Positions 8,526 to 55,045 of a stretch of DNA of 64,000 nt are shown in pieces. The DNA comes from Dokdonella sp. (lineage in GTDB: Bacteria; Pseudomonadota; Gammaproteobacteria; Xanthomonadales; Rhodanobacteraceae). Below the pieces are notes generated by a model. It made no database searches, was not told the DNA's origin, and saw only the letters and a list, made by a program, of their open reading frames with translations. A program made the position numbers and the translations under genes. The stretch is from positions 7,874-71,873 of the forward strand of contig NZ_JBGAFX010000009.1 of the NCBI RefSeq assembly GCF_044227025.1, given 5' to 3'. Every line of letters begins with the position of its first letter. Positions within the stretch are counted from its first letter, which is position 1.

Positions 8526-9011
8526 ATGCTTCGAAAGCAACTCGCGATACTGCTCGGCGCGTTCGCCATCGCCATCGCGGCGTCCGTGCAGGCATCGCCG
8601 ACGGTCCACGTGCTCGCGCCTGCCGCGTTGCTCGGATCCATTGGCGGTGGCGGCGACTGCAATGACCTCGATGCCGCGGTTTACCCCGGCCACGCCGAGG
8701 TCGTCGGCAACGGGTACGACGATGACTGCGACGGACTCGCCGACGAGGATGCCAACAACAACCCGTCCGGCGATGTGTCCGACTTGGACGGCGACACCTT
8801 TTCGCTCGCGAACGGCGACTGCAACGATCATGTGCCGAGCATCCACCCCGGCGCGACGGAAATCGTCGGCAATTACGTCGACGACGATTGCGACGGACTC
8901 GCCGACGAGGATGCGGCCAACCATCCATCGAACGATTCGGCCGATCGCGACGGCGACCACGTGATCATCGCACCGGACGCGATCTTCGCGTGGGGCTTCG
9001 ATCCGTTCTAG
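8526..9011 (+). CDS. Exported protein with two MopE-type 'putative metal-binding motif' repeats (161 aa)
   Basis: Trimmed to MLRKQLAILLGAFAIAIAASVQA (signal peptide). Two copies of C-N-D-x5-(Y/H)-PG-x-(A/T)-E-x-VGN-x-x-DDDCDGLADED are present. The C-terminus is ...DAIFAWGFDPF. Confidence 0.75.
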   Translation: MLRKQLAILLGAFAIAIAASVQASPTVHVLAPAALLGSIGGGGDCNDLDAAVYPGHAEVVGNGYDDDCDGLADEDANNNPSGDVSDLDGDTFSLANGDCNDHVPSIHPGATEIVGNYVDDDCDGLADEDAANHPSNDSADRDGDHVIIAPDAIFAWGFDPF

Positions 9012-16529: not shown

Positions 16530-17738
16530 ATGCAGCACGGCGCCGAAATCCTGCTCAGCCTGTTCGCGATCTTCGTCGCGGCACAAGTCGGCGCCGAGAT
16601 TGCGCAGCGCCTGAAACTGCCCGGCGTGGTCGGAGAGATCGTCGCCGGCTGCGCGATCGGGCCTTCCGCGCTCGGACTGGTCCGGCCCGAGCAGATAGCC
16701 GCGGGCACCCCGCTGGACGTGCTGGCCGAGATCGGCGTGGTGCTGCTGCTGTTCGCGGTCGGCCTCGAGACGCGCCTCGACGACCTCAAGAAGGTCGGCA
16801 GGAGTGCATTGCTGGTCGGCGTGCTCGGGGTCGTCGTGCCGTTCGCGCTCGGGGCCCTGTGGGCGCACGGCAACGGCTTCGAATGGACCCGGTCGTTGTT
16901 CGTCGCCGCCGCGTTCGTCGCGACGTCGGCCGGCATCACCGCGCGCGTGCTGCAGGAACTCGGCGTGCTGACCCGCATCGAGGCGCGGGTGATCCTCGGC
17001 GCCGCGGTGATCGACGACATCCTCGCGATGCTGCTGCTCGGCGTGGTCACCTCGCTGCAGGGTGGCGAAGGCATCAACGTGAAGGGCCTCCTGTTCGTGC
17101 TCGCGCAGGCCGTCGGCTTCGTCGTGGTGATCGGCTGGGTCGGCAGCCGCGTGATGCGCCGGCGCGCGCATTGGCTCGACCGACCGATCAATCCGCTGTC
17201 GCCGTTGACGATCGCGCTCGCGATCTGCCTCGGGCTTGCGTATCTGTCGACCGAATTCGGCCTCGCCGCGATCATCGGCGCCTTCCTCGCCGGCATGATC
17301 GCGTCGGAAGTACCGCAGCGCGAGGAGCTCGAACACCAGATGCAGCCGCTGCTCGCGCTGCTGACGCCCTTCTTCTTCGTCGTGACCGGGGCGAAGATCG
17401 ACCTGTCGGTATTCGCGAGCGCGGACGCGCTGTGGATGCTCGCGATCGCGACCCTCATCGCGATCGTGTCCAAGCTCGTCGGCGGTTTCCTCGGCGCGTT
17501 GTCGCTGGGAGCACGCAGCGCCCTGATCGTCGGCGTCGGCATGGTGCCACGCGGCGAAGTCGGCGTCGTCATCGCGAGCCTCGGCCTTGCCGCGGGCGTG
17601 TTCTCCAACCAGACCTATGCGGTCATCGTCGCGATGTCGCTGCTGACCTCCATCGTTACGCCGCCGGTGCTGTCGCTGCTGCTCGCGCGGGACAGGGACG
17701 CTGGCACGCCCCCGCCCGGACCGGCAGCGCGTCTCTAG
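16530..17738 (+). CDS. Cation:proton antiporter (CPA2 / Kef-type membrane domain, 402 aa)
   Basis: Trimmed from ORF 16278..17738 to MQHGAEILLSLFAIFVAAQVGAEIAQRLKLPGVVGEIVAG, the canonical Na_H_Exchanger N-terminus. Polytopic throughout. Confidence 0.88.
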   Translation: MQHGAEILLSLFAIFVAAQVGAEIAQRLKLPGVVGEIVAGCAIGPSALGLVRPEQIAAGTPLDVLAEIGVVLLLFAVGLETRLDDLKKVGRSALLVGVLGVVVPFALGALWAHGNGFEWTRSLFVAAAFVATSAGITARVLQELGVLTRIEARVILGAAVIDDILAMLLLGVVTSLQGGEGINVKGLLFVLAQAVGFVVVIGWVGSRVMRRRAHWLDRPINPLSPLTIALAICLGLAYLSTEFGLAAIIGAFLAGMIASEVPQREELEHQMQPLLALLTPFFFVVTGAKIDLSVFASADALWMLAIATLIAIVSKLVGGFLGALSLGARSALIVGVGMVPRGEVGVVIASLGLAAGVFSNQTYAVIVAMSLLTSIVTPPVLSLLLARDRDAGTPPPGPAARL

Positions 17739-19858
17739 CCGTCGAAGCCATCCGTGAAGATGCGGTCGTCTCGGCATGCATCACCCTGCGCGCCCTGCGC
17801 CATCACGTTGAACGCGGCATGGGCGGGGAACATCGGCGAACCCGCCCCGACTGCCTCGATGTACCAGTGACCAGGCGCACCGGCGAGCCCGGCGCGATAG
17901 CCGACCACGAAGGGGACGTCGTCGAGCACCGTGCCGGCGCTGTAGTTGCCGTCGGCGCGCGTGACCTGCACCGCCACGCACGGATTGTCGTCGAGCAGGG
18001 GATGTTCCAGCCTGACTTCAGTCGCCGCTGCGGCACCAACCTCGGCGACCATCCAGTTCTGGCTCGTGAACAGGTCGGTGACGATGACGTTGAACGAGAC
18101 GCCGATCGCCATGTCGGCGAGGTCCTCGTTGCGGACGTACCAGTGGGCTCCGAAGTACTCGAGGCCGATGCGGTGGTCGTGGTAGGTGCCGCCGATTCCG
18201 CCGGGGTTCCAGTTGTGCGTGACGAACGCAACGGCCTCCGGATGGCCGTTCAACCCGGCATCGTCGAGCATGGTGTAGTTGGCGCTCGAATTGCCGGCTG
18301 TGCTCGTGTGCACGTAGTGAGCACGGCTGTCGATCGGCGCAAACACGTTGAAACCTCGACCGACGCTCAGCGGGGAAGCATTCTCATGGAAGATCGACCA
18401 GTGCGACGGCGAGCCGTCGTCCTCGAATACACCGAGTGTGTTGGCCGACTCCGCGCCCGCCGAAGATGCGCGCACGGGCGTCGCCAGCAGGACGGCATTG
18501 GTCGCCAGCGTCCACATGGGTTCGTCGATCCGGGTGTAGTCGCCGCCTGGAATGGTGTTCGCGGTGGTGGAACGATGCGTGCCGCTGCGATCGACGCTCA
18601 GTTCATAGGCGCCGATGTCGACACCGGCCACCACGCGCGACTCGCCATCCGCATCGAAGCCGTAACCGAACAGCGTTGTCGGCACGTCGGCCGTGTTGCC
18701 GGTGTCCACCGCCGGAGAAGCGAGGCTTGACGGGCGCGGATTGACCAGGCTGGCGAGCAACGGGTCACCGTTCACGGTGCCCGGACCCGGCGTGAAGCTG
18801 TCGCCGCCGTTGCCGTGGACGAGGTTGTAACCGTTGCTCACTGCGCCAGCCAGGCCGCTGTCGATGGCGAGGCCGGTCGCCACATTGAAGGCCACGAGGT
18901 TGTTCGCCACGCGTCCGGAACTCGAATCGGCGCCGAAGCGGCTCACCTCCACGCCGAGAATGTTGCCGACCACGGTGTTGTTGACGAGGCGCAGCGCCGT
19001 GTTCGTCAGCGCGACCATCAGGGATGCTTCACCACCGGCCGGTCCGCGCGCGCCGACGACGACGTTGTCGAGCACGTCCATGGTGTTGGCCGTACTGCCC
19101 GGGTTCCATGCCGCGCGGATGCCCTTCTGGTAGCCGCCGCCATCGATGACGTTGTCGTTGATGGCCATGCTGCCGAAGCCGTTCGCGGAGAGCGCGATCG
19201 CGGTGGCCGGAACGTTGCGAAGATGCACGCGGTTGCGGAACACGTTGATGTGCCATTCGCCCCCGAGGCTGTAAGCGCCGACGCCGCCCGACAAGGTGGT
19301 CGTCGCGCCGCCAAGCTCGATGACGTTGTCGCCGATTGCGACGTGCGCCGGGCCGGTACCCGCGTCGCCCACCTGGATGGCTCCCTCGCCCGTGCTGGTG
19401 CTCGTTTCCTCGAAGCGCAACCGGCTCAGCGTGTAGGAACTGTCGGTGTCGCTGCGATGGGTCACCCTCAGCTGCCCATGGCGCAGGACCAGGTGCTCGA
19501 TGTCGATGTTCACCGCGCCGCTGGTCGGAGAATCGACGTCGATACGGCGTCCCGGCGCGAACACGGCGTCGATTCCGGCGGCACCGGCCAGGGTCAACGA
19601 TTTGGAGATGGAAAGACTTTCGTCCACTGCGGTGTAGCCGTCGGGAAGCAGCAGCTCGTCGTTGCCGATGAGTACGGTATCGCCCGGCGCCGCGGCGTCG
19701 ATGCAGGCCTGCAGGGTCGCCTGGCAGGCGCCGATGCCGCTCAGGTTTGGCCATAGGTAGGTGGTGGCCGCGTGCGCTCGCGGCCCGAAGGCGCCGAACG
19801 CTGCAACGACGAGGGCTGACGCGAGCTTTCGCGCGATGACCTTCGAATGGCTGTTCAT
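17735..19858 (-). CDS. Exported right-handed parallel beta-helix repeat protein with three C-terminal repeats of unknown type (707 aa)
   Basis: Trimmed from ORF 17735..20200 to MNSHSKVIARKLASALVVAAFGAFGPRAHA (signal peptide, AGGAGC upstream). PbH1-like repeats are present (NNTVVGN, NNLVAFN, DNVIDGG). Three repeats of about 85 aa each end in FNV. The C-terminus is ...DRIFTDGFDG. Confidence 0.8.
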   Translation of the reverse strand: MNSHSKVIARKLASALVVAAFGAFGPRAHAATTYLWPNLSGIGACQATLQACIDAAAPGDTVLIGNDELLLPDGYTAVDESLSISKSLTLAGAAGIDAVFAPGRRIDVDSPTSGAVNIDIEHLVLRHGQLRVTHRSDTDSSYTLSRLRFEETSTSTGEGAIQVGDAGTGPAHVAIGDNVIELGGATTTLSGGVGAYSLGGEWHINVFRNRVHLRNVPATAIALSANGFGSMAINDNVIDGGGYQKGIRAAWNPGSTANTMDVLDNVVVGARGPAGGEASLMVALTNTALRLVNNTVVGNILGVEVSRFGADSSSGRVANNLVAFNVATGLAIDSGLAGAVSNGYNLVHGNGGDSFTPGPGTVNGDPLLASLVNPRPSSLASPAVDTGNTADVPTTLFGYGFDADGESRVVAGVDIGAYELSVDRSGTHRSTTANTIPGGDYTRIDEPMWTLATNAVLLATPVRASSAGAESANTLGVFEDDGSPSHWSIFHENASPLSVGRGFNVFAPIDSRAHYVHTSTAGNSSANYTMLDDAGLNGHPEAVAFVTHNWNPGGIGGTYHDHRIGLEYFGAHWYVRNEDLADMAIGVSFNVIVTDLFTSQNWMVAEVGAAAATEVRLEHPLLDDNPCVAVQVTRADGNYSAGTVLDDVPFVVGYRAGLAGAPGHWYIEAVGAGSPMFPAHAAFNVMAQGAQGDACRDDRIFTDGFDG

Positions 19859-19905
19859 GTTTGCTCCTGTTTCGGCACCCGCTGGCGCCGATCTCCTCCA
19901 TACGG

Positions 19906-19922
19906 GGAATCGCGCCGATTCC
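19906..19922. promoter_or_regulatory. Perfect 7-3-7 palindrome GGAATCG-CGC-CGATTCC in the divergent intergenic region
   Basis: Read directly from the sequence. It lies in the 127-bp gap between the beta-helix gene start (19858) and the putative ECF sigma start (19986). It presents GGAAT on both strands. Function not established. Confidence 0.35.
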
Positions 19923-19985
19923 GTGCACGCACCGCCACGGCATGAGTTAGCCTTGCCGTACATCGGCTTCCAGCGCGGATCGGCC

Positions 19986-20576
19986 GTGAACGGAACATCC
20001 ATCAACGGGGACGCACTGACGGCAGTCACTGCACTGCTGCACGACCTGGCCGGTCGCGGCGACGGGGTGTCGCGCCTGTTCGAGCAGATGCAGCACGACC
20101 TGCGCCGGGTCGCGCACCGCGAACGAATGTCGGTGCGCGCGAGCGATACCTTGTCGACGACGGCGCTGGTGCACGAGGCCTTCCTCAAGTTCGAGCGCAC
20201 CGCCCTGCCGCAATTCGCCGACCGCAGGCACTTCTACGGCGTCGCAGCGCGTGCGATGCGCCAGGTGCTGGTCGATCACGCGCGTGCGCACCTCGCCGAC
20301 AAGCGGGGCGCCGGTGCAGCACACGACACCCTCGGCGCCGTCGACCGCGAGGTCGATTCGAATCATCGCGACGCCGAACGCCTGTTCGAAATCAATGCCG
20401 CACTCGACCAACTGGATGCCGTTCGGCCGCGTCTTGCCCAGGTGGTCTACCTGCGCTTCTACGCCGGCCTCAGCGACGCCGAGATCGGCAACGTGCTCGA
20501 TGTCGATGAAAGCACCGTGCGCCGCGACTGGCTGAAGGCACGCGGCTGGCTCTACCAGCACCTCGGAAGCGCCTGA
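19986..20576 (+). CDS. ECF sigma factor of the kinase-associated type (PF07638/TIGR02999-like, about 196 aa)
   Basis: TALVHEAFLKF...RRHFYGVAARAMRQVLVDHARAHLADKRG...YLRFYAGLSDAEIGNVLDVDESTVRRDWLKARGWL is characteristic. The start is uncertain. No in-frame ATG lies between the divergent gene and region 2, so the GTG at 19986 is proposed. The stop is 1 nt before the kinase ATG. Confidence 0.8.
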   Translation: MNGTSINGDALTAVTALLHDLAGRGDGVSRLFEQMQHDLRRVAHRERMSVRASDTLSTTALVHEAFLKFERTALPQFADRRHFYGVAARAMRQVLVDHARAHLADKRGAGAAHDTLGAVDREVDSNHRDAERLFEINAALDQLDAVRPRLAQVVYLRFYAGLSDAEIGNVLDVDESTVRRDWLKARGWLYQHLGSA

Positions 20577-20577
20577 T

Positions 20578-23246
<2,669 letters not shown>

Positions 23247-23274
<28 letters not shown>

Positions 23275-29366: not shown

Positions 29367-32207
29367 TCAGCGCACGGCCAGGCGCTTGCGCAGGTCGGCA
29401 GCGTAGAGCGAACCGGATGCACCGAGCAAGGGTTCCAGCTCCGCGCGCAACGCCGCCGCCTCGACGTCGGCACCGCGCGCCTCGATGGCGCGGGCCAGCG
29501 CCACCTTGATTTCGAGCACGCGCGGATCGTGGGGCGCCAACGGACTGCGAACGGCGAGCGCCTCGCGCAACAACGGCTCCGCAATGGCGCCGCGTTCGAG
29601 CGCGAGTTCCGCACGCGCCAGTGCGAACAGCGCATTGGCGAGTCCGATGTTGTGCGCAGGCAGCGCTGTGCGCGCGAGCTCGAGCGCTTTGGACGCCGTC
29701 GCCTGCGCCTTCACCGCGTCACCCGCATCGAGCTCGGCTTCGGCGAGCTGCGCGTGCAACAAGGCGACGACCGGATCAGCACCGCGACTCGCGCCCTTCA
29801 CTGCCGCCAGCGCCGCGCGCAATTCATCGAGCGCTTCGGCAGGACGGTGGCGCAGCCGAAGCAGATTGCCAAGGTAGCCACGATCCTGGTTCAGCCATTC
29901 GGAGTCGGCGGGATAGCTGCGACGGTCGATCGCCAGCGTCTCGCGCAGCGCCTCTTCGGCCGACGCATAGTCGCCGCCGTACTGCAGCGCGAGGGCGAGA
30001 TTGCCGAGCGGACCGACGCGTGCTTCCTCGGTCGCGCCTTCGATGCCGCTCCAGGTGGAAATCGATTCGCGGAACGCGGCCTGCGCTTCGGCGAATCGGC
30101 CCAGCATGATGCGATCGAGACCGATCATGTTCTGCGCGCGTGCAATCTCGTCGGCATGGCGCGCGCCGAGTACCCGGCGCTGGTCGTCGAGAAGCGCCAC
30201 CCGACCGCGCAGACCCTCTTCGTAGCGCCCCTGCTTCTCGATCGCCATGAACAGGTTCGCGCGCGCGCCCAGCGTTTCGCGATGATCGTTGCCGTAGCGT
30301 TCGATCTTGATGTCGAGCGCTTCGCGCAGCGCCTGCTCGGCGCCGACGTAGTCGCCTTTGTGCGACAGTGCGAACCCGAGATCGTTGAGATCGGCGGCGA
30401 CCGTCGTGCTGCGGCCGCCCAGTCGCTGGCGGTCGATCGCGAGCGCCGCCCGCTCGGCGGCAATCGAGTCGTCGTAGCGCGACAGCTCGTCGAGCGCGTG
30501 CGCGAGCAAGGCCCAGTCCAGTGCCACCTCGCGCGCCCCCTCGCCGAGGCGGGCAATATCCCCGGCCAGCAGTTCGCGCGCGACCGATTCGGCTCGCGCG
30601 GTTTCGCCCCGCTCGGTCAGCACGCGCACCTGCAGGCGACGCGCATCGGACAGGTCTTTTGGCGCGCCGGCACCGGCGGCGAGCGCGAGTGCGCGCTCGA
30701 CATGCGTGGTCGCCGGCTCGTACAGGCTGCGCTCGGCCTCGCTCGAGGCCAGCCGCACGAGATTGCGCGCGCGCACTTCGGCGGCGACGCCCCCGTTCTC
30801 GCCGAGCGCGACCGCCTTCTCCAGCAGCGGGGTCGCGCGCTCGTAATTGCCTATGTTCCAGTACAGGCTGCCGATGAGGCCGGTCATGTCGGCCGCGATC
30901 GACGCGTTGGCGGCTTCGTCGGCGAGGCGCGCCTCCCCCTTTTCGAGCAGTTGCTGCGCGGTGAATGGCCGACCCTCGTTCTCGTCGGGCGCCGCCTGCT
31001 CGAACACGCCGGCGAGAAAACCGCGCGCGGCCTCGGCCCGATCGGCCTGCTCGCGCGCCAGTGCCGCCTGATGCAGGCTGACCAGCGTCGCGCCGATGCA
31101 GAACGCGAACGCGATCAGTGCGCCAGCGAGCGCGTAACGATGCCGCCGCGCGAACTTCGCAAATCGATAGCCGGCCCCGCTGCGCGCCGCGATCGGACGG
31201 CCACCGAGGTGACTGCGGAGGTCGGACGAGAGCGCCTCGACCGAGGAGTAGCGCCGCTCCGGCTCGGACGCGAGTGCGGTCAGCACGATGCGGTCGAGGT
31301 CGCCGCGCAGCGCGCGCCGGGTAGCCGCGTCGACGACGGCACCCGGCGCCTTCATCTCGCCCGCGCCGTCGCGCGCGGGCCGCACACCGGTGAGCAGTTC
31401 GAACAGCACGACGCCCAGCGCATAAACGTCGGTCGCGGTCGTCACCGCCGCGCCCGCGACCTGCTCCGGCGCGGCGTAGTCGGGCGTGAGCAGGCGCGCG
31501 GCCGTTCGCGTCGGCGCTTGCGCGTCGGTGTCATCGAGCACCTTGGCGATGCCGAAATCCAGCAGCTTCGGCGCGCCGTCCGCGTCGACGAGGATGTTCG
31601 AAGGCTTCAGGTCGCGATGCACGACGAGGTTGCGATGCGCGAACTGCACCGCCTCGCACACGCGCAGGAACAGGCGCAGGCGCGCGGGTATGTCAAGCGC
31701 GCGCTCGCGCGCATGATCCGTGATCGGCATGCCCTCGACGTATTCCATGACGAGGTACGGCGTGCCGTCCTCGCCGACCCCGCCGTCAATGAGGCGCGCG
31801 ATGGACGGGTGTTCCAGCCGCGCGAGGATCTGCCGCTCGCGACGAAACCGCAGCAGCAGCCCGGGCGTCGGCCACGCGACCTGCTTGACCGCGACGCGTT
31901 GCTCGAACTCGCCGTCGCCGCGTTCGGCCAGCCAGACCTCGCCCATGCCGCCGGCGCCGAGGCGGCGCACGACGCGCCATGCGCCGAAGCGCGACGGCTG
32001 CGCGCCATCGGCGCCTTCGCGCCATTGCTGGGTATCGGCCGGCGGATGTTCCATGAAACCCTCGGCGCGCGCGTCGGCGCGCAACAGGCGCTCGACCTCC
32101 GCGCGCAACGTCGCGTCATCGGCGCATGCGACATCGAGATAGCCGCTGCGCGCGGCGGGCGGCAACTCGACGCAGCGATCGAACAGCTCGGCGAGGCTGC
32201 GACGCAT
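29367..32207 (-). CDS. Transmembrane Ser/Thr protein kinase with C-terminal TPR region, paralog 2 (946 aa)
   Basis: Trimmed to MRRSLAELFDRC. Motifs: GAGGMGEVW, VAVK, HRDLKPSNILV, DFGIAK, APE. The TM segment ALAGALIAFAFCIGATLVSL is followed by long TPR-like repeats. The start lies 5 nt after the sigma stop. Confidence 0.92.
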   Translation of the reverse strand: MRRSLAELFDRCVELPPAARSGYLDVACADDATLRAEVERLLRADARAEGFMEHPPADTQQWREGADGAQPSRFGAWRVVRRLGAGGMGEVWLAERGDGEFEQRVAVKQVAWPTPGLLLRFRRERQILARLEHPSIARLIDGGVGEDGTPYLVMEYVEGMPITDHARERALDIPARLRLFLRVCEAVQFAHRNLVVHRDLKPSNILVDADGAPKLLDFGIAKVLDDTDAQAPTRTAARLLTPDYAAPEQVAGAAVTTATDVYALGVVLFELLTGVRPARDGAGEMKAPGAVVDAATRRALRGDLDRIVLTALASEPERRYSSVEALSSDLRSHLGGRPIAARSGAGYRFAKFARRHRYALAGALIAFAFCIGATLVSLHQAALAREQADRAEAARGFLAGVFEQAAPDENEGRPFTAQQLLEKGEARLADEAANASIAADMTGLIGSLYWNIGNYERATPLLEKAVALGENGGVAAEVRARNLVRLASSEAERSLYEPATTHVERALALAAGAGAPKDLSDARRLQVRVLTERGETARAESVARELLAGDIARLGEGAREVALDWALLAHALDELSRYDDSIAAERAALAIDRQRLGGRSTTVAADLNDLGFALSHKGDYVGAEQALREALDIKIERYGNDHRETLGARANLFMAIEKQGRYEEGLRGRVALLDDQRRVLGARHADEIARAQNMIGLDRIMLGRFAEAQAAFRESISTWSGIEGATEEARVGPLGNLALALQYGGDYASAEEALRETLAIDRRSYPADSEWLNQDRGYLGNLLRLRHRPAEALDELRAALAAVKGASRGADPVVALLHAQLAEAELDAGDAVKAQATASKALELARTALPAHNIGLANALFALARAELALERGAIAEPLLREALAVRSPLAPHDPRVLEIKVALARAIEARGADVEAAALRAELEPLLGASGSLYAADLRKRLAVR

Positions 32208-32212
32208 GGCGC

Positions 32213-32851
32213 TCAGGTATCCGGGAACAGCGACGTATGCAGCTGCGCCCGCGCCCGCCGCCAATCGCGGTTCAGCGTGCGCTCGCTGACTCCTTGCAGC
32301 ACGGCGATCTCGGCAACGTCCATGCCGGCGAAGAAGCGCAGTTCGACCAGTTCGGCGAGGCGCGGCTCGTCGGCTGCGAGCTCGGTCAGCGCATGGTCCA
32401 GGCGCAGCAACTGATCGGGCGCGAGTTCGCTGCCGCCGACGACATCGCCTGCTTCTTCGAGGACGACGAACTGGACCTGCCCGCCACCGCGCTTGTCGGC
32501 GATGCGCGCACGCGCGCGATCGATCACGATCTGGCGCATCGCGCGGGCGGCAAGCGCGAAGAAATGCCGGCGTCCCTGCAGCAGGGACAGACGCTCGGGC
32601 TGCGCGAGCTTGAGGTAAACCTCGTGGACGAGTCCGGTGGTGTTCAGCGTGGCGCCCGGCGCAATGGCCAGCTGCTTGCGCGCGAGCAGCTTGAGCTCAG
32701 CGTAGACGCGCGCGAACAGCGCCTTCAGCGCCTGCGTATCGCGGTCGTTCGCGCTGGCCAGTAGCGCATCGATCGACTCGTCCACGGCTACGTCCGCGTT
32801 GCCACCCGGGTCCCCCGGGCACGAGTATAGGACACGCGCTTGCGCCGACAA
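32213..32851 (-). CDS. ECF sigma factor of the kinase-associated type, paralog 2 (up to 212 aa)
   Basis: TGLVHEVYLKL...RRHFFALAARAMRQIVIDRARARIADKRGGG...LRFFAGMDVAEIAVLQGVSERTLNRDWRRARAQL. The start may be the ATG at 32851 or the GTG at 32785. Confidence 0.85.
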   Translation of the reverse strand: MSAQARVLYSCPGDPGGNADVAVDESIDALLASANDRDTQALKALFARVYAELKLLARKQLAIAPGATLNTTGLVHEVYLKLAQPERLSLLQGRRHFFALAARAMRQIVIDRARARIADKRGGGQVQFVVLEEAGDVVGGSELAPDQLLRLDHALTELAADEPRLAELVELRFFAGMDVAEIAVLQGVSERTLNRDWRRARAQLHTSLFPDT

Positions 32852-32876
32852 CGCAGGGCGCGCGCCGCCACCGGCA

Positions 32877-33251
32877 TCACGGCTCCCCGAGTGCCGCCTG
32901 GGTCTTCTTCGGCAGGTTCGCGCGCACCAGTTCGTACGAACGCCGCACGAATCCGGCCAGTTCGTCCTGGGTGAAGCGCTCCGGCTCGGTCACGCTGACC
33001 CAGAACGCGCGCGCCATGTAGTGTGCGGGCGCCATGCCCGGTTGTTCGGTCAGTTCGAGGAAACGGTCGGAGTCGACCTTGAACGACAGGCGACCCCGAT
33101 CCGGGCCGAGCGCGCACATTACCACGAACATCTTGCTGGCGACGCTCCAGACGAGGTCGACTTCCCACTTGATCGAGCGCGTCGCGCCGGGCCAGCGCGC
33201 GCACAGCGCGTCGAGGTCGGTGTCGCGCATCCCGGTCACCTTCGCTGTCAT
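32877..33251 (-). CDS. MmcQ/YjbR-family protein (124 aa)
   Basis: Length and the pattern ...IKWEVDLVWSVASKMFVVM...SFKVDSDRFLELTEQPGMAPAHYMARAFWVSV... match the YjbR fold family. Confidence 0.8.
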   Translation of the reverse strand: MTAKVTGMRDTDLDALCARWPGATRSIKWEVDLVWSVASKMFVVMCALGPDRGRLSFKVDSDRFLELTEQPGMAPAHYMARAFWVSVTEPERFTQDELAGFVRRSYELVRANLPKKTQAALGEP

Positions 33252-50668: not shown

Positions 50669-53286
50669 ATGCTCAAGTACAGCTACCTAGCCGCCGCCCT
50701 CACGATGGCTTGCGGCATCGCAGCGGCGGCACCGAACGCCAATGCGCCAGCAAGTTTCGCCGGCAACGTCAAATCGATCGACCAGGTCGCGACCGCACGC
50801 TTCAGCGCACTCGACCTCAAGACCATCGGCGAAGAGGATGCACTGCGCGAGGCAAGCGGCCGTCCGATGCGCTTCGCGATCGCCCACGACAGCGCCGTCA
50901 ACGTGCAATCCGGCGGCAGCTGGGAACAGCACGGCGAGCGCAGCATCTGGCGTTACCGCGTGCAGGCCGATGCCGCGACCTCGCTGAACTTCGGCTTCAC
51001 CCGGTTCCACGTACCGGCCAGCGCGCGCCTGTACATCTACGACAACAAGGATCATGCCCAGCTCGCCGGTCCGTACGATGCGGTCTCGCACAACGCGCTC
51101 GGCCAGTTGTGGACGCCGATCATCGCACCGACGTGATGATCGAGATCGACGTCGCCAGCAGCGAACGCGCGCAGGTCGACGTGACACTCGGCAAGATCAA
51201 CCAGGGCTACCGCGGCTTCGGCACCCAGGCCAAGGGCTACGACCAGCCGCGCCTGAACGTCACCGGCGAAGGCAAGTCGGCCTGCTCGCCCGACGCGATC
51301 CGTTCCGGTTCCTGCAACATGGACGTCGCCTGCCTCGACAGCAACGATCCGTGGAACAAGCCGCGCCGCTCGGTCGGTGCGTACACGATCTCCGGCACCG
51401 ACACCTGCACCGGCTCGCTGGTCAACAACACGGCCAACGACCGCAGCATGCTGTTCATGACCGCGAGCCATTGCGAAGTCGTGAACAACCCTGCCGGCAT
51501 CGTCGTGTACTGGAACTACGAAGCACCGACCTGCAGAACGCCGGGCAGCGGCGCGAGCGGCACGCCGGTGCCGCGCCCGACGACGACGAGCAGCGGCTCG
51601 ACCTTCCTCGCACGCACGCGCAACCCGTTCGATGGCGGCGACTGCACCAACGGCGCGGTCTGCTCGGACAACACCGTCGTGCGCCTCAACGGCACGCCCG
51701 ATCCGGCATGGAACCTTTTCTGGGCCGGCTGGGACCACGGCAGCACGCCGGCGACCTGCGTACCGGGCCCGAATGCGTCGTCCACCGTCGGCGAATGCGC
51801 GAGCATCCATCACCCAAACGTCGACGAGAAGCGCATCACCTTCGTCGAACAGAACTTCCAGCTCGGCGGCATCAGCGGCGGCACCAACACCCACTGGCAC
51901 GCATTCTGGGATCCGACCCCGCCGGTCCTGCCGAACATCGTCTCGCCACCGCCTTCGCTGCCACCGGGCGTGACCGAGCCGGGTTCGTCGGGCTCGCCGC
52001 TCTACAACGCCAGCCAGCATTTCGTCGGCGTGCTCAGCGGCGGCCCGTCCGCCTGCGGCGCGACCGGCGCGAACCTTTCGGACTTCTACGGCCAGCTCTC
52101 GGTCGCATGGGAAGGCGAAGGTTCGCTCGGCACGCGCATGAAGGACCACCTCGACCCGCTCAACACCGGTGCGACGTCGATCGAAGGCATCGGCATGTCG
52201 CCGTTCAACTTCACGCTCGATCCGGCGTCGGTCTCCGTGTGCACCACGACCAACAGCACCACGGTCAACCTCGCCGCGACCTACGATGTCGGGTTCAGCG
52301 GTACGGTCGCATTGACGGCAACCGGCAACCCGGCGCCGAGCACGGCCGTGTTCGCGCCGACGAGCCTGACGCCGCCGACCGCCGCTTCCGTGCTGACACT
52401 CGGCGGACTGTCGGGCGTCGCACAGGGCAGCTACACGATCACCGTGACCGGCACCAGCGGCGCCGATTCGGTCGAGAAGTCGCTGCCGTTGACGATCGCC
52501 TCCGCGCTGTCCGGCACCACGACCCTGACGGCACCGGCCAATGGTGCGACCGGCGTGGCAACAAGCCCGACGCTCAGCTGGACCGCGCTGGCGGGGGCGG
52601 CGTCGTATACGGTGGACATCGCGACCGACGCGGGGTTCACGAGCATCGTCTCGACGCACTCCGGCATCACCACCACGAGCTATGCGGCCAGCGGCCTGAA
52701 TCCGGCGACGACGTATTACTGGCGCGTCAAGCCGACCAATGGCTGCGGTGACGGCACCGTATCGGCGACCTTCAGCTTCACGACCGCAAACGTGATCTGC
52801 AGCACCCCGGCGTTGGCGATCCCGGACAACAACCCGACCGGGGCGAACGACACGATCACGCTGACCGACGCATCGGTGCTGTCCGGCCTGACGGTGTCGA
52901 TCAAGGCCACGCACACCTGGGTCGGCGACCTGAAGTTCACGCTGTCGAAAGACACGGCGACTTCCGCCGTGATCGATCGTCCGGGCTACACCGGCTCGGG
53001 TTTCGGCTGCAACGCCGACGACATCGACGTGATCCTCGATGATGCCGCGGGCAGCCCGGTCGAATCGGCCTGCAGCGCAACGCCGCCGGCACTGGGCGGC
53101 ACGCTGTCGCCGAATGCCCCCGGCCTCGCGCCGTTCAACGGCCTGTCGCTGGCCGGCACCTGGACACTCAATGTGTCCGACAATGCGGGCGGCGATACCG
53201 GCACGCTGACCGAGTGGTGCCTGATCCCGGAAGTTGCCGTGAGCGACGTCATCTTCCAGGACGGCTTCGAGGCCGTCGTCCGGTAA
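50669..53286 (+). pseudogene. Frameshifted secreted Lys-C-like (S1) serine endopeptidase with Ig-like/FN3-like modules and a proprotein-convertase P-domain
   Basis: The signal peptide and propeptide lie in one frame (50669..51136, ending ...GQLWTPIIAPT*). The continuation ...DVMIEIDVASS... lies in the -1 frame. Catalytic motifs TASHC, DNTVVRL and GSSGSP are intact downstream. C-terminal P-domain (THTWVGDLKFTL...NVSDNAGGDTGTL). The C-terminus is ...DVIFQDGFEAVVR. This could instead be a sequencing error. Confidence 0.8.
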
Positions 53287-53306
53287 GCAACACCAGGCAT
53301 GCAACG

Positions 53307-53340
53307 AAAAAGGGGCCGCGAGACGCGGCCCTTTTTTTTT
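53307..53340 (+). terminator. Rho-independent terminator
   Basis: AAAAAGGGGCCGCG-AGA-CGCGGCCC followed by nine T. It lies 21 nt downstream of the protease stop. Confidence 0.9.
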
Positions 53341-53656
53341 CGAAGGCATTCCTGTCGCTCAAGCGCACCGCGGGCATCCCGGTGCCTTGCGACATGCATT
53401 GCACCGGGTCGATCAGCAACGTCCGCGGGTGGACACGACGGAATGCGCCACCGGAATCCGCTGATCGAAGACCGCAGCGGGTTGTCGCATTGCACCTCCC
53501 TGCTGATCCCATGACTGCCGGGCTAGTGACCGGGCGGCGAAATCCCGCGCGGCCGCGAGTCGAGGGATCTTCCCGCCGGCACCATGATCCCTCTCCCACC
53601 CGTCCGCCGTATGCAAGGCCAAGCGCTCATTCCGATGCGCACGAGGGAGCACACCC

Positions 53657-55045
53657 ATGACCGCCAACCTGTTCATCCGCCGCACCCTGCTCGCCTGCGC
53701 ATTGCTGCAGGCCGGCGCAGCCGCTGCCGAGGGCGCACTCGATGCGAGCTGGGGCTTCGCCGGCACCGGCAAGTCGCCGATCGCATTCGACTTCGGCAGT
53801 ACCAAGGCCGACATCGCGTCCGCCAGCGTGATCGGGTCGGACGGCGCGATGTACATCTCGGGTACCGTGTTCGATGCCGGCGGCGTGTCGCGCATGGGCG
53901 TCACCCGCCTGCTGCCGAACGGCCTCATCGACACGAATTTCGGTACCGATGGTCGCGCGATGACGCAGGGCTCGCAGGGCGAGCTGTTCAATACCGCCGG
54001 CATCGTGATGAGGGGCAACAGCCTGCTGGTCGGCGGCTACAAGAAGAAGACCGCCGACAACTGGGACTTCGTGCTGTGCGCATTCTCGACCGGCGGCGTT
54101 CCGCTGCTGTTCAACTCGACGCTGACCTCGTGCGTGAGCGCCTCGTTCGATCCGGGCCCGTCGCTGAGCCGCGACATCCCGCGCGCGATGGCGGTGCAGG
54201 CGGACGGCAAGATCGTGATGGCCGGCACCACCGCGGTAAACACCGTGACGGACACCTACGCCGCATTCGCGCGGTTCAACACCGATGGCGCGCTCGATCA
54301 CACGTTCGGCCTGAGCAACTCGGGCATCCAGCTGGCGCGTTCGTCGAACTTCCTGCGCCACCAGATCAATGCGGTCGCGATCGCCTCGAACGGCAAGATC
54401 GTCGGCGTCGGCAAGACCGATGTCGTCGGCGGCAACGACAGCTCCGCGGTGATCGTTCGTCTCGACACCGATGGCACGGTCGAGCAGCTTTCGCAGAGCA
54501 ACGAATGCACCTTCGAAGTCGACGGCAGCAATTCGCGCGACACCGAACTGCTCGGCCTGACCATGGTGCCGAACGGCGGCGGCCTCGAGGACGACTTCGT
54601 CGCGGTCGGCTATGCACAGATGTCCGGCACCGTGCACAGTGGCCTGATCGCCAAGCGCAGGGGTGCCGCGTGCGCCTACGACTCCAGCTTCAGCGGCGGC
54701 GACGGCACCAGCGGCTACACCGTGGTGACCGCGGGCGATTCGATGACGTTCGAGAGCGTCGCCACGCAGCCGAACGTCGGCTACGTCATCGCCGCGACCT
54801 ACACCTCCACCGGCGGCGACGCCGACTGGCTGGTCGGTCGCTACCGTCCGGATGGCAGCAGCGATTCCCTGCTGACCCCGATCGACTTCGGCGTGGTCCA
54901 CCAGACCGACATCGTCGCCGATGTGCATGTCTTCCACGACGGCATCTACGTCGCCGGCAGCTGGCAGAAGACCGGTGCCAACTACGATTTCGGTGCCGCA
55001 CGCCTGTCGCTCGACCAGATCTTCGCGGACGGCTTCAACCACTGA
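53657..55045 (+). CDS. Exported delta-60-repeat (beta-propeller-like) protein (462 aa)
   Basis: GAGGGAG RBS and signal peptide MTANLFIRRTLLACALLQAGAAAA. Recurring D-x-(S/T/N)-FG-x-x-G and (D/N)GKIV-x-(A/V)G motifs (IDTNFGTDGRA, QADGKIVMAGTT, LDHTFGLSNSG, SNGKIVGVGKT). The C-terminus is ...DQIFADGFNH. Confidence 0.8.
   Translation: MTANLFIRRTLLACALLQAGAAAAEGALDASWGFAGTGKSPIAFDFGSTKADIASASVIGSDGAMYISGTVFDAGGVSRMGVTRLLPNGLIDTNFGTDGRAMTQGSQGELFNTAGIVMRGNSLLVGGYKKKTADNWDFVLCAFSTGGVPLLFNSTLTSCVSASFDPGPSLSRDIPRAMAVQADGKIVMAGTTAVNTVTDTYAAFARFNTDGALDHTFGLSNSGIQLARSSNFLRHQINAVAIASNGKIVGVGKTDVVGGNDSSAVIVRLDTDGTVEQLSQSNECTFEVDGSNSRDTELLGLTMVPNGGGLEDDFVAVGYAQMSGTVHSGLIAKRRGAACAYDSSFSGGDGTSGYTVVTAGDSMTFESVATQPNVGYVIAATYTSTGGDADWLVGRYRPDGSSDSLLTPIDFGVVHQTDIVADVHVFHDGIYVAGSWQKTGANYDFGAARLSLDQIFADGFNH

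Follow-up and report, generated by a model that had tools for sequence, protein, structure and literature searches.

Four otherwise unrelated exported proteins encoded in a 64-kb stretch of the Dokdonella sp. genome (contig NZ_JBGAFX010000009.1; the whole stretch of 64,000 nucleotides is called the window below) end in the same short tail, D-x-I-F-x-(D/W)-G-F-(D/E/N), which also closes many proteins in other genomes. The comparisons described here point to a linear C-terminal recognition tag on many beta-rich proteins that are exported by Sec, are destined for the surface or the medium and are otherwise unrelated, a reading that we regard as evenly poised between right and wrong. No previous description of the tail was found in the literature, Pfam or NCBIfam; literature searches with exact tail strings and on secretion, choice-of-anchor, IPTL-CTERM and Lysobacter sorting-signal topics yielded no paper describing it.

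The regular expression D.IF.[DW]GF[DEN] has exactly four matches in all six frames of the window (67.6% GC), compared with about 1.2e-5 matches expected by chance from the six-frame amino-acid composition. All four lie 1-4 residues before a stop codon and are preceded by 208-864 open codons. In translation they are:

53245..53286, + strand: tail A, DVIFQDGFE followed by AVVR and stop, the end (SDVIFQDGFEAVVR) of an S1-type protease with fn3 and P-domain (protein A)
55013..55045, + strand: tail B, DQIFADGFN followed by H and stop, the end (LDQIFADGFNH) of a delta-60 protein (protein B)
17735..17767, - strand (read 17767-17735): tail C, DRIFTDGFD followed by G and stop, the end (DDRIFTDGFDG) of a beta-helix protein (protein C)
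8976..9011, + strand: tail D, DAIFAWGFD followed by PF and stop, a variant with W in place of D/N, the end (PDAIFAWGFDPF) of a MopE-motif protein (protein D)

An earlier note on this DNA had claimed four shared tails on exported proteins, and translation together with the six-frame scan found all of them where it had placed them. The four translated ends also bear out its statement that the tail has no hydrophobic helix and no basic cluster. Its further statement that three of the four copies share a nucleotide string needs correction: the exact 18-nucleotide string ATCTTC-NNN-GACGGCTTC is common to two copies, and the third has a synonymous GAT. Comparison of the flanks showed that the DNA around the four tails is unrelated.

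One genome per GTDB species was scanned with a codon-degenerate DNA pattern for D-x-I-F-x-D-G-F-[D/E], which gave at least 119 loci (L001-L119). A match was scored as terminal if no more than 12 residues separated it from the stop codon and its open reading frame (ORF) had at least 100 residues. Among the matches listed, 72 of the 127 in-frame matches were terminal, mostly with 0-4 residues beyond GF[DE] (binomial P 5e-59, even with a generous 5% null), as against 4 of 120 matches to the same pattern in viral contigs, again in ORFs of at least 100 residues. The low viral figure means that the DNA pattern has no terminal bias built into it, and the enrichment at C-termini agrees with what the earlier note had proposed. 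The viral matches (L200-L319) lie mostly inside conserved phage proteins and include two families in which the match is about 210 and about 245 residues before the stop, one of them with a P-loop (LGHSNSSKTT). A terminal match of another kind is the end of a Muribaculaceae RecA (DDIFGDGFDA and stop; L080), a chance match in a cytoplasmic protein, and the regular expression alone is therefore not fully specific.

Relaxed variants in neighbouring genes, which had not been subject to selection by the pattern, were terminal in 17 of 22 cases, compared with 7% expected; these terminal variants include IFANGFE, LFRDGFD and IFSDDFD. At the GTDB loci synonymous codons differ at every motif position, and the motif is kept both in Marinicella (38-45% GC) and in Dokdonella (60-74% GC). 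As judged from codons and base composition, selection is shown to act on the tail at the protein level. The consensus can be written [ILV]-F-x-[D/N]-G-F-[D/E] followed by 0-4 Gly/Ala/Pro-rich residues, and in 118 family members that had not been selected with the pattern the conserved positions are F in 115, D/N in 116, G in 101, the second F in 102 and E/D in 107. Among the matches listed, 26 of the 62 tails bearing an extension have Pro as their final residue (GAP, GTP, GLP, TP or P before the stop). Pro-ended tails are unexpected, since translation termination is generally reported to suffer when Pro is the last residue. The nine-residue motif holds about 29 bits, and about 41 bits are needed for significance against 1.84 billion proteins.

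Carriers among the matches listed include D. soli, D. fugitiva, D. ginsengisoli, D. immobilis and Dokdonella sp. MW10; Rudaea, Pseudolysobacter and many metagenome-assembled genomes of Rhodanobacteraceae/Lysobacterales; Marinicella, including strain W31 and M. litoralis; and several uncultured Gammaproteobacteria. No locus from Xanthomonas, Stenotrophomonas or Lysobacter sensu stricto was among the 119 loci listed. The tail is repeated within genomes, with four copies in the 64 kb studied here, several listed loci from the same assemblies and five 8-kb tiles with two strict copies each. By a crude heuristic, 34 of the 48 complete carrier ORFs among the matches listed begin with a signal-peptide-like sequence; by eye the number is higher, and one signal is of the Tat type. 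The earlier note had assigned the tail to a sub-secretome of this organism. The association with signal-peptide proteins, for which it had suggested looking, holds for most carriers, but the tail is not organism-specific, being present in Dokdonella, Rhodanobacteraceae and Marinicella and, in a long form, in other phyla.

The long terminal form, D.IF.DGFESGD.S.W(S)...P before the stop (about 21 residues), was seen in Acidobacteriota, Holophagae, Thermoanaerobaculia and Deltaproteobacteria (L005, L029, L047, L059, L078, L085, L098). At L059 it stands nearly alone, with a stop two codons upstream. Two Marinicella paralogues at one locus (L049; 1005-1030 and 4145-4170) have the tail followed by 18 conserved residues, E(E/L)(V/L)IIP(V/I).(V/I)..N.TLIRGC, with Cys as the last residue before the stop.

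Apart from the tail, the carriers have little in common. The 70 carriers among the matches listed hit 78 Pfam families, none of them dominant (FG-GAP, beta-helix, Ig-like, subtilase, reprolysin, cadherin and BACON are examples), and 67 families of NCBIfam, and the mean column identity is 6%. Going by these family assignments, the tail is shown to be independent of domain content. The carrier genes of the window are:

50669..51136, + strand: N-terminal part of protein A, in another frame, with signal peptide MLKYSYLAAALTMACGIAAAAP and propeptide
51136..53286, + strand: catalytic and C-terminal part of protein A, 716 residues, with a weak Trypsin match (below cut-off), fn3 and P_proprotein
53657..55045, + strand: protein B, a delta-60 repeat (DUF5122) beta-propeller of 462 residues with a Sec signal peptide
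17735..19858, - strand: protein C, a right-handed beta-helix (choice-of-anchor Q) plus DUF7452, 707 residues, with a Sec signal peptide
8526..9011, + strand: protein D, a small protein of 161 residues with MopE-type metal-binding motifs and a Sec signal peptide

Pfam and NCBIfam assign different content to each of the four, in agreement with the claim that their domains are unrelated, and in every case the last domain model stops short of the tail. The Sec signal peptides said to be present on all four are ordinary in proteins B, C and D, but that of protein A sits in another frame: a one-nucleotide frameshift near 51130, within ATCATCGCACCGACGTGATGATCGAG, separates the N-terminal from the catalytic frame. 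The frame of the signal peptide and propeptide stops at TGATGA, and the catalytic frame continues with DVMIEIDV (51120-51145). The frameshift is either the mark of a pseudogene or a sequencing error.

Two unrelated carriers, proteins B and C, were modelled with AlphaFold2 using family alignments. Protein B is predicted to be a beta-propeller with a predicted local distance difference test (pLDDT) score of about 90; its last strand finishes at residue 451, beyond which the tail (452-462) is modelled as coil and pLDDT drops from 59 to 39. In protein C (beta-helix plus DUF7452, mean pLDDT 90), residues 699-707 score below 50 and are mostly coil, with a short low-confidence helix at 699-702. In both models the tail is thus predicted to be exposed and unstructured. 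No Pfam or NCBIfam model covers the tail, either in whole proteins or in isolated tails, even at E<=10, and the P_proprotein, choice_anch_Q, choice_anch_D and delta-60 models each stop ahead of it. With the models ending before the tail and AlphaFold2 not packing it, the tail is not the last strand of a defined domain, a possibility that the earlier note had raised against its own proposal. PDB sequences searched with a 14-column tail profile contained nothing convincing; the marginal matches (E 0.4-0.7), to PPDVIFRDGF at the N-terminus of ArtA toxins, were judged to be chance.

By its protein homologues, the DNA comes from a Dokdonella-like bacterium of the family Rhodanobacteraceae. Homologues of the carriers tell what can stand in the place of the tail. 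Orthologues of protein B retain DRIFADGFE at their ends down to 36% identity, and other delta-60 proteins have at this position a C-terminal domain of the type IX secretion system (T9SS; PF18962) or a transmembrane segment with a basic tail instead. In two homologues of protein B (P0051, P0073) the delta-60 repeats are fused to a Trans_reg_C (OmpR/CadC-type) DNA-binding domain. Of 95 homologues of protein C, 84 end in the tail. Several distant ones without it have IPTL-CTERM-like anchors consisting of a transmembrane segment and Arg residues (P0207, ending EIPTLSQWGLALLAALVAAAALWRLRPA; P0209, P0214, P0215), and another (P0213) has a T9SS-like C-terminal end. NCBIfam assignments of the 70 carriers include the choice-of-anchor families Q (11), D (3) and O (1) among the matches listed, as well as myxosortase- and rhombosortase-dependent M36 peptidases, rhombotarget A and a MYXO-CTERM-anchored family. 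At the level of homologous sequences, the tail is shown to be interchangeable over evolutionary time with established sorting signals. As for tripartite anchors co-resident in the tail-selected loci, one IPTL-like protein was seen, in a Thermoanaerobaculia locus.

Elsewhere the window looks, by its ORF translations, like ordinary chromosome, with apparent genes for seryl-tRNA synthetase, RND efflux and Mfd, and no secretion or sortase locus was seen among the translated ORFs of the 64 kb. Two pairs of genes for an extracytoplasmic function (ECF) sigma factor and a Ser/Thr kinase are present, both confirmed by Pfam:

19761..23274, + strand: ECF sigma factor (PF07638; domain from near 20025) and Ser/Thr kinase-TPR (20578-23274), divergent from the gene of protein C, a candidate regulator
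29367..32989, - strand: second ECF sigma factor (32989-32213) and Ser/Thr kinase-TPR (32696-29367), with no adjoining tail gene

When the ORFs of the listed tail-selected loci were clustered, the commonest neighbour other than tail genes themselves was a PF07638 ECF sigma factor with a Ser/Thr kinase after it. Inspected by eye, the paired kinase has one apparent transmembrane segment and then a long TPR region, presumably periplasmic. Pairs stand directly beside tail genes at L006, L018, L023, L053, L057, L086, L123, L131, L135, L159, L166, L167 and L187, and CadC-like regulators with TPR-like C-termini (by eye) recur beside tail genes at L040, L099, L109 and L114. In a reverse test, 80 sigma-centred metagenome loci (648 kb) were collected with a three-sequence sigma alignment as the query, an eight-sequence alignment being too divergent for the metagenome scan, and distances were measured from the nearest gene boundary. 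The densities of tail genes per 10 kb were:

0-0.5 kb from the pair: 1.08
0.5-2 kb from the pair: 0.30
2-5 kb from the pair: 0.06
5-10.5 kb from the pair: 0.07

Within 0.5 kb of a pair there were 7 tail genes versus 0.41 expected (Poisson P 3e-7; Fisher P 0.003 per gene), a density about 15 times that at 2-10 kb. In other organisms, the C-termini of neighbours of the pair are T9SS-like (L150, L188), or the neighbour is a delta-60 protein that lacks the tail (L172). The simplest reading of these arrangements is that the sigma-kinase pairs would regulate genes for surface proteins irrespective of anchor type; it is also possible that the periplasmic TPR region senses tail proteins.

If the tail is a recognition tag, it would be exposed after Sec export, and a dedicated factor in the periplasm or outer membrane would read it in trans. 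It would probably form a small hairpin about the D/N-G turn and offer its two Phe residues to the reader, which would send the protein to its final place, most likely display on the cell surface or release, in cooperation with type II secretion. Such a route would mirror that of GlyGly-CTERM and MYXO-CTERM cargo, which require the type II secretion system for surface delivery (10.1101/2023.06.07.544157). Since the tail does not span the membrane, an intramembrane protease of the sortase type cannot be the reader, and with this class excluded the mechanism would have to differ from those of all described short C-terminal sorting signals. In its most specific form the proposal, which we advance tentatively as possible rather than probable, is that diderms have an undescribed sorting route for which the tail serves as address label. 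Its reader, soluble or in the outer membrane, would recognise the unstructured acidic-aromatic peptide of about nine residues on folded periplasmic proteins and send dozens of them per genome to the surface or the medium, possibly coupled to sensing of the cargo load by the ECF sigma factors and Ser/Thr kinases.

Several observations weigh against a recognition tag. A minority of the motifs outside Chloroflexota are internal or N-terminal, which a strictly C-terminal signal would not predict: in some Lysobacterales proteins (L014, L020, L025, L039, L055, L096, L104) the motif and a Pro-rich linker are followed by an extra domain, and in a few proteins (L075, L082) the motif comes directly after the signal peptide. 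Clustering of ORFs from the 119 tail-selected loci listed revealed no recurrent sorting or processing enzyme beside the tail genes; only regulators recur. The 0-4, sometimes more, residues that follow GF[DE] speak against recognition of a free carboxylate in the manner of PDZ domains. Finally, the motif resembles the first strand of CBM4_9/jelly-roll domains, and the pattern may partly reflect shared ancestry and not shared function.

This resemblance leads to an explanation of the tail as an evolutionary stub or junction, that is, the first strand of a lost jelly-roll or CBM-like domain, kept as a linker or cleavage site and not as an address. In Chloroflexota (L011, L027, L037, L094, L095) the motif, as D.IFADGFESGNL.AW after Pro/Thr linkers, opens a repeated domain of about 220 residues that ends in YFDAFESRR.SYIGP; no model matched this domain above threshold, and there were weak matches to N-terminal positions of CBM_4_9, Polysacc_lyase and NTTRR-F1. 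The long form GFESGD.S.W...P of Acidobacteriota and Deltaproteobacteria holds the next conserved Trp of the strand pair, and the Lysobacterales proteins with a domain after the motif and linker fit the same picture. The tail may thus descend from, or mimic, a first jelly-roll strand. However, two large families of about 100 homologues each end stably in the tail down to about 30-36% identity, and this stable short form argues for selection and against simple decay. At least 70 unrelated proteins would need to have lost the same domain at the same point. One Lysobacterales protein (L104) contains the motif and a separate CBM-type start (LFEDPGFE...W) in succession, and the two are therefore distinct elements. 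On balance we consider a stub or junction unlikely. A passive element of stability or folding, acting with no dedicated reader, has about the same low probability in our estimate. The tail might shield protein ends from tail-specific proteases and carboxypeptidases or cap a beta edge: the frequent final Pro noted above (26/62 extended tails) would hinder exopeptidases, the acidic character of the tail is unlike the apolar ends generally known to be favoured by the tail-specific protease Prc, and the carriers are mostly beta-rich folds. Protection does not, however, call for F, G and F to be almost invariant and fixed in their spacing from one phylum to another, AlphaFold2 docked the tail onto the fold in neither model, and the presence of true sorting signals at the same position in homologues would be left unexplained.

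That the tail serves as a regulatory ligand seems to us very unlikely. In this case the tail would be bound by the periplasmic TPR region of the Ser/Thr kinases that accompany ECF sigma factors, and the cell would sense the exported load in this way, much as C-terminal Y-x-F peptides of outer-membrane proteins activate DegS and sigma-E. The PF07638 sigma and Pkinase-transmembrane-TPR pair is indeed the commonest non-tail neighbour, tail genes are about 15 times denser close to it, and TPR domains are generally known to bind acidic C-terminal peptides elsewhere, such as EEVD and PTS1. Against this, ordinary regulation of surface genes explains the adjacency equally well, neighbours of the pair elsewhere have T9SS-type ends or no tail, a tail gene adjoins only about one in ten pairs, and three of the four tail genes of the window have no adjoining pair. 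Chance, composition or a DNA-level repeat overlapping the gene ends has a negligible probability. The motif is short and two window copies have an 18-nucleotide string in common, but the number of matches expected is only about 1.2e-5, the nucleotide pattern was matched in no shuffle of the window, the amino-acid motif is kept at 38% as well as 72% GC, and the viral control excludes a built-in terminal bias; a DNA-level repeat is ruled out by the unrelated flanks together with the varying codons. The stub or junction, the passive element and the regulatory ligand each account for part of the data, but invariant spacing, terminal bias and anchor swapping taken together are fitted by none of them as well as by a recognition tag.

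To our knowledge no linear signal is known for type II secretion, and how diderms choose folded periplasmic proteins for the outer membrane is largely open. With a tag of nine residues that unrelated cargo proteins share across phyla, this choice would become testable. If the proposal is true, no short C-terminal sorting signal before it has worked without a membrane-spanning segment or an intramembrane sortase. For annotation, the tail picks out a large sub-proteome of surface or secreted proteins that current Pfam and NCBIfam models miss in Dokdonella, Rhodanobacteraceae, Marinicella and several uncultured lineages. Experiments are feasible in sequenced and cultured carriers (the four named Dokdonella species, Dokdonella sp. 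MW10, Marinicella sp. W31 and M. litoralis).

Among known elements, the first strand of CBM4_9/jelly-roll domains (N-G-x-F-E ... W) is similar to the tail in its D/N-G-F-E and, for the long form, in S-G-x-x-x-x-W. It differs in that no domain follows the tail in the window or in most gammaproteobacterial carriers. The C-terminal signal of type I secretion was rejected as a counterpart, such cargo having no N-terminal signal peptide, whereas tail carriers have Sec or Tat signals. The beta-signal of outer-membrane proteins (Y-x-F; recognized by BamD or the DegS PDZ domain) resembles the tail as a short C-terminal peptide with aromatic residues that is carried by exported proteins; its reading takes place in the periplasm, on the free peptide, and an ECF sigma response is linked to it. 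It ends at the terminal aromatic residue and is found on beta-barrels, whereas the tail has a variable extension of 0-4 residues, an acidic or Pro end and soluble folds. The tail was not accepted as such a signal: it finishes mostly in E, D, G or P, and the modelled carriers are a propeller and a beta-helix, not barrels.

The T9SS C-terminal domain (PF18962 and related) takes the place of the tail in delta-60 and beta-helix homologues of the Bacteroidota type. Like the tail it lacks a membrane anchor, and it is read once Sec export is complete, as is proposed for the tail. The T9SS domain is a folded beta-sandwich of 70-100 residues, whereas the tail has about nine residues and is predicted to be disordered. 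We do not know of T9SS use in Gammaproteobacteria, to which the tail lineages studied here belong. A T9SS domain was rejected for the four window proteins, which have no PF18962-type match and tails of 9-13 residues.

The closest comparison is with the tripartite signals LPXTG, PEP-CTERM, GlyGly-CTERM, MYXO-CTERM and IPTL-CTERM. Eight attributes of short C-terminal sorting signals listed by Haft (10.1101/2023.06.07.544157, section 5) served as a yardstick, and six of the eight (1, 2, 3, 6, 7 and 8) are found in the tail. Attribute 1 is seen in 4/4 window copies and in 72/127 matches listed from the genome scan, against 4/120 in the viral control; attribute 2 in the four copies within 64 kb and the five 8-kb tiles with two strict copies; and attribute 3 in the near-invariant F, D/N, G, F and E/D of the 118 family members. 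A signal peptide on most carriers (attribute 6) was found directly in three of the four window proteins, in the fourth via its frameshifted N-terminus, and in 34/48 complete ORFs. Dissimilarity of carrier pairs apart from the signal (attribute 7) is evident from the 78 Pfam and 67 NCBIfam families among 70 carriers, and homologues without the signal or with another one (attribute 8) have T9SS domains, transmembrane segments with basic tails or IPTL-CTERM-like anchors. The tail lacks a hydrophobic segment of transmembrane-helix length (attribute 4), there being mostly 0-4 residues after GF[DE] and no hydrophobic run, and a terminal basic or Arg cluster (attribute 5), its extensions being Gly/Ala/Pro-rich or acidic. 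Unlike the tripartite signals, then, the tail has no transmembrane helix or Arg/Lys cluster, is acidic and 7-13 residues long, has no known cognate enzyme and could not be presented in the usual way to an intramembrane or membrane-bound sortase. Like them, it occupies the extreme C-terminus, occurs in many copies per genome, has a few near-invariant residues and is borne by unrelated signal-peptide proteins whose homologues elsewhere carry a different signal; choice-of-anchor domains, M36 peptidases and rhombotarget A are carrier families common to both.

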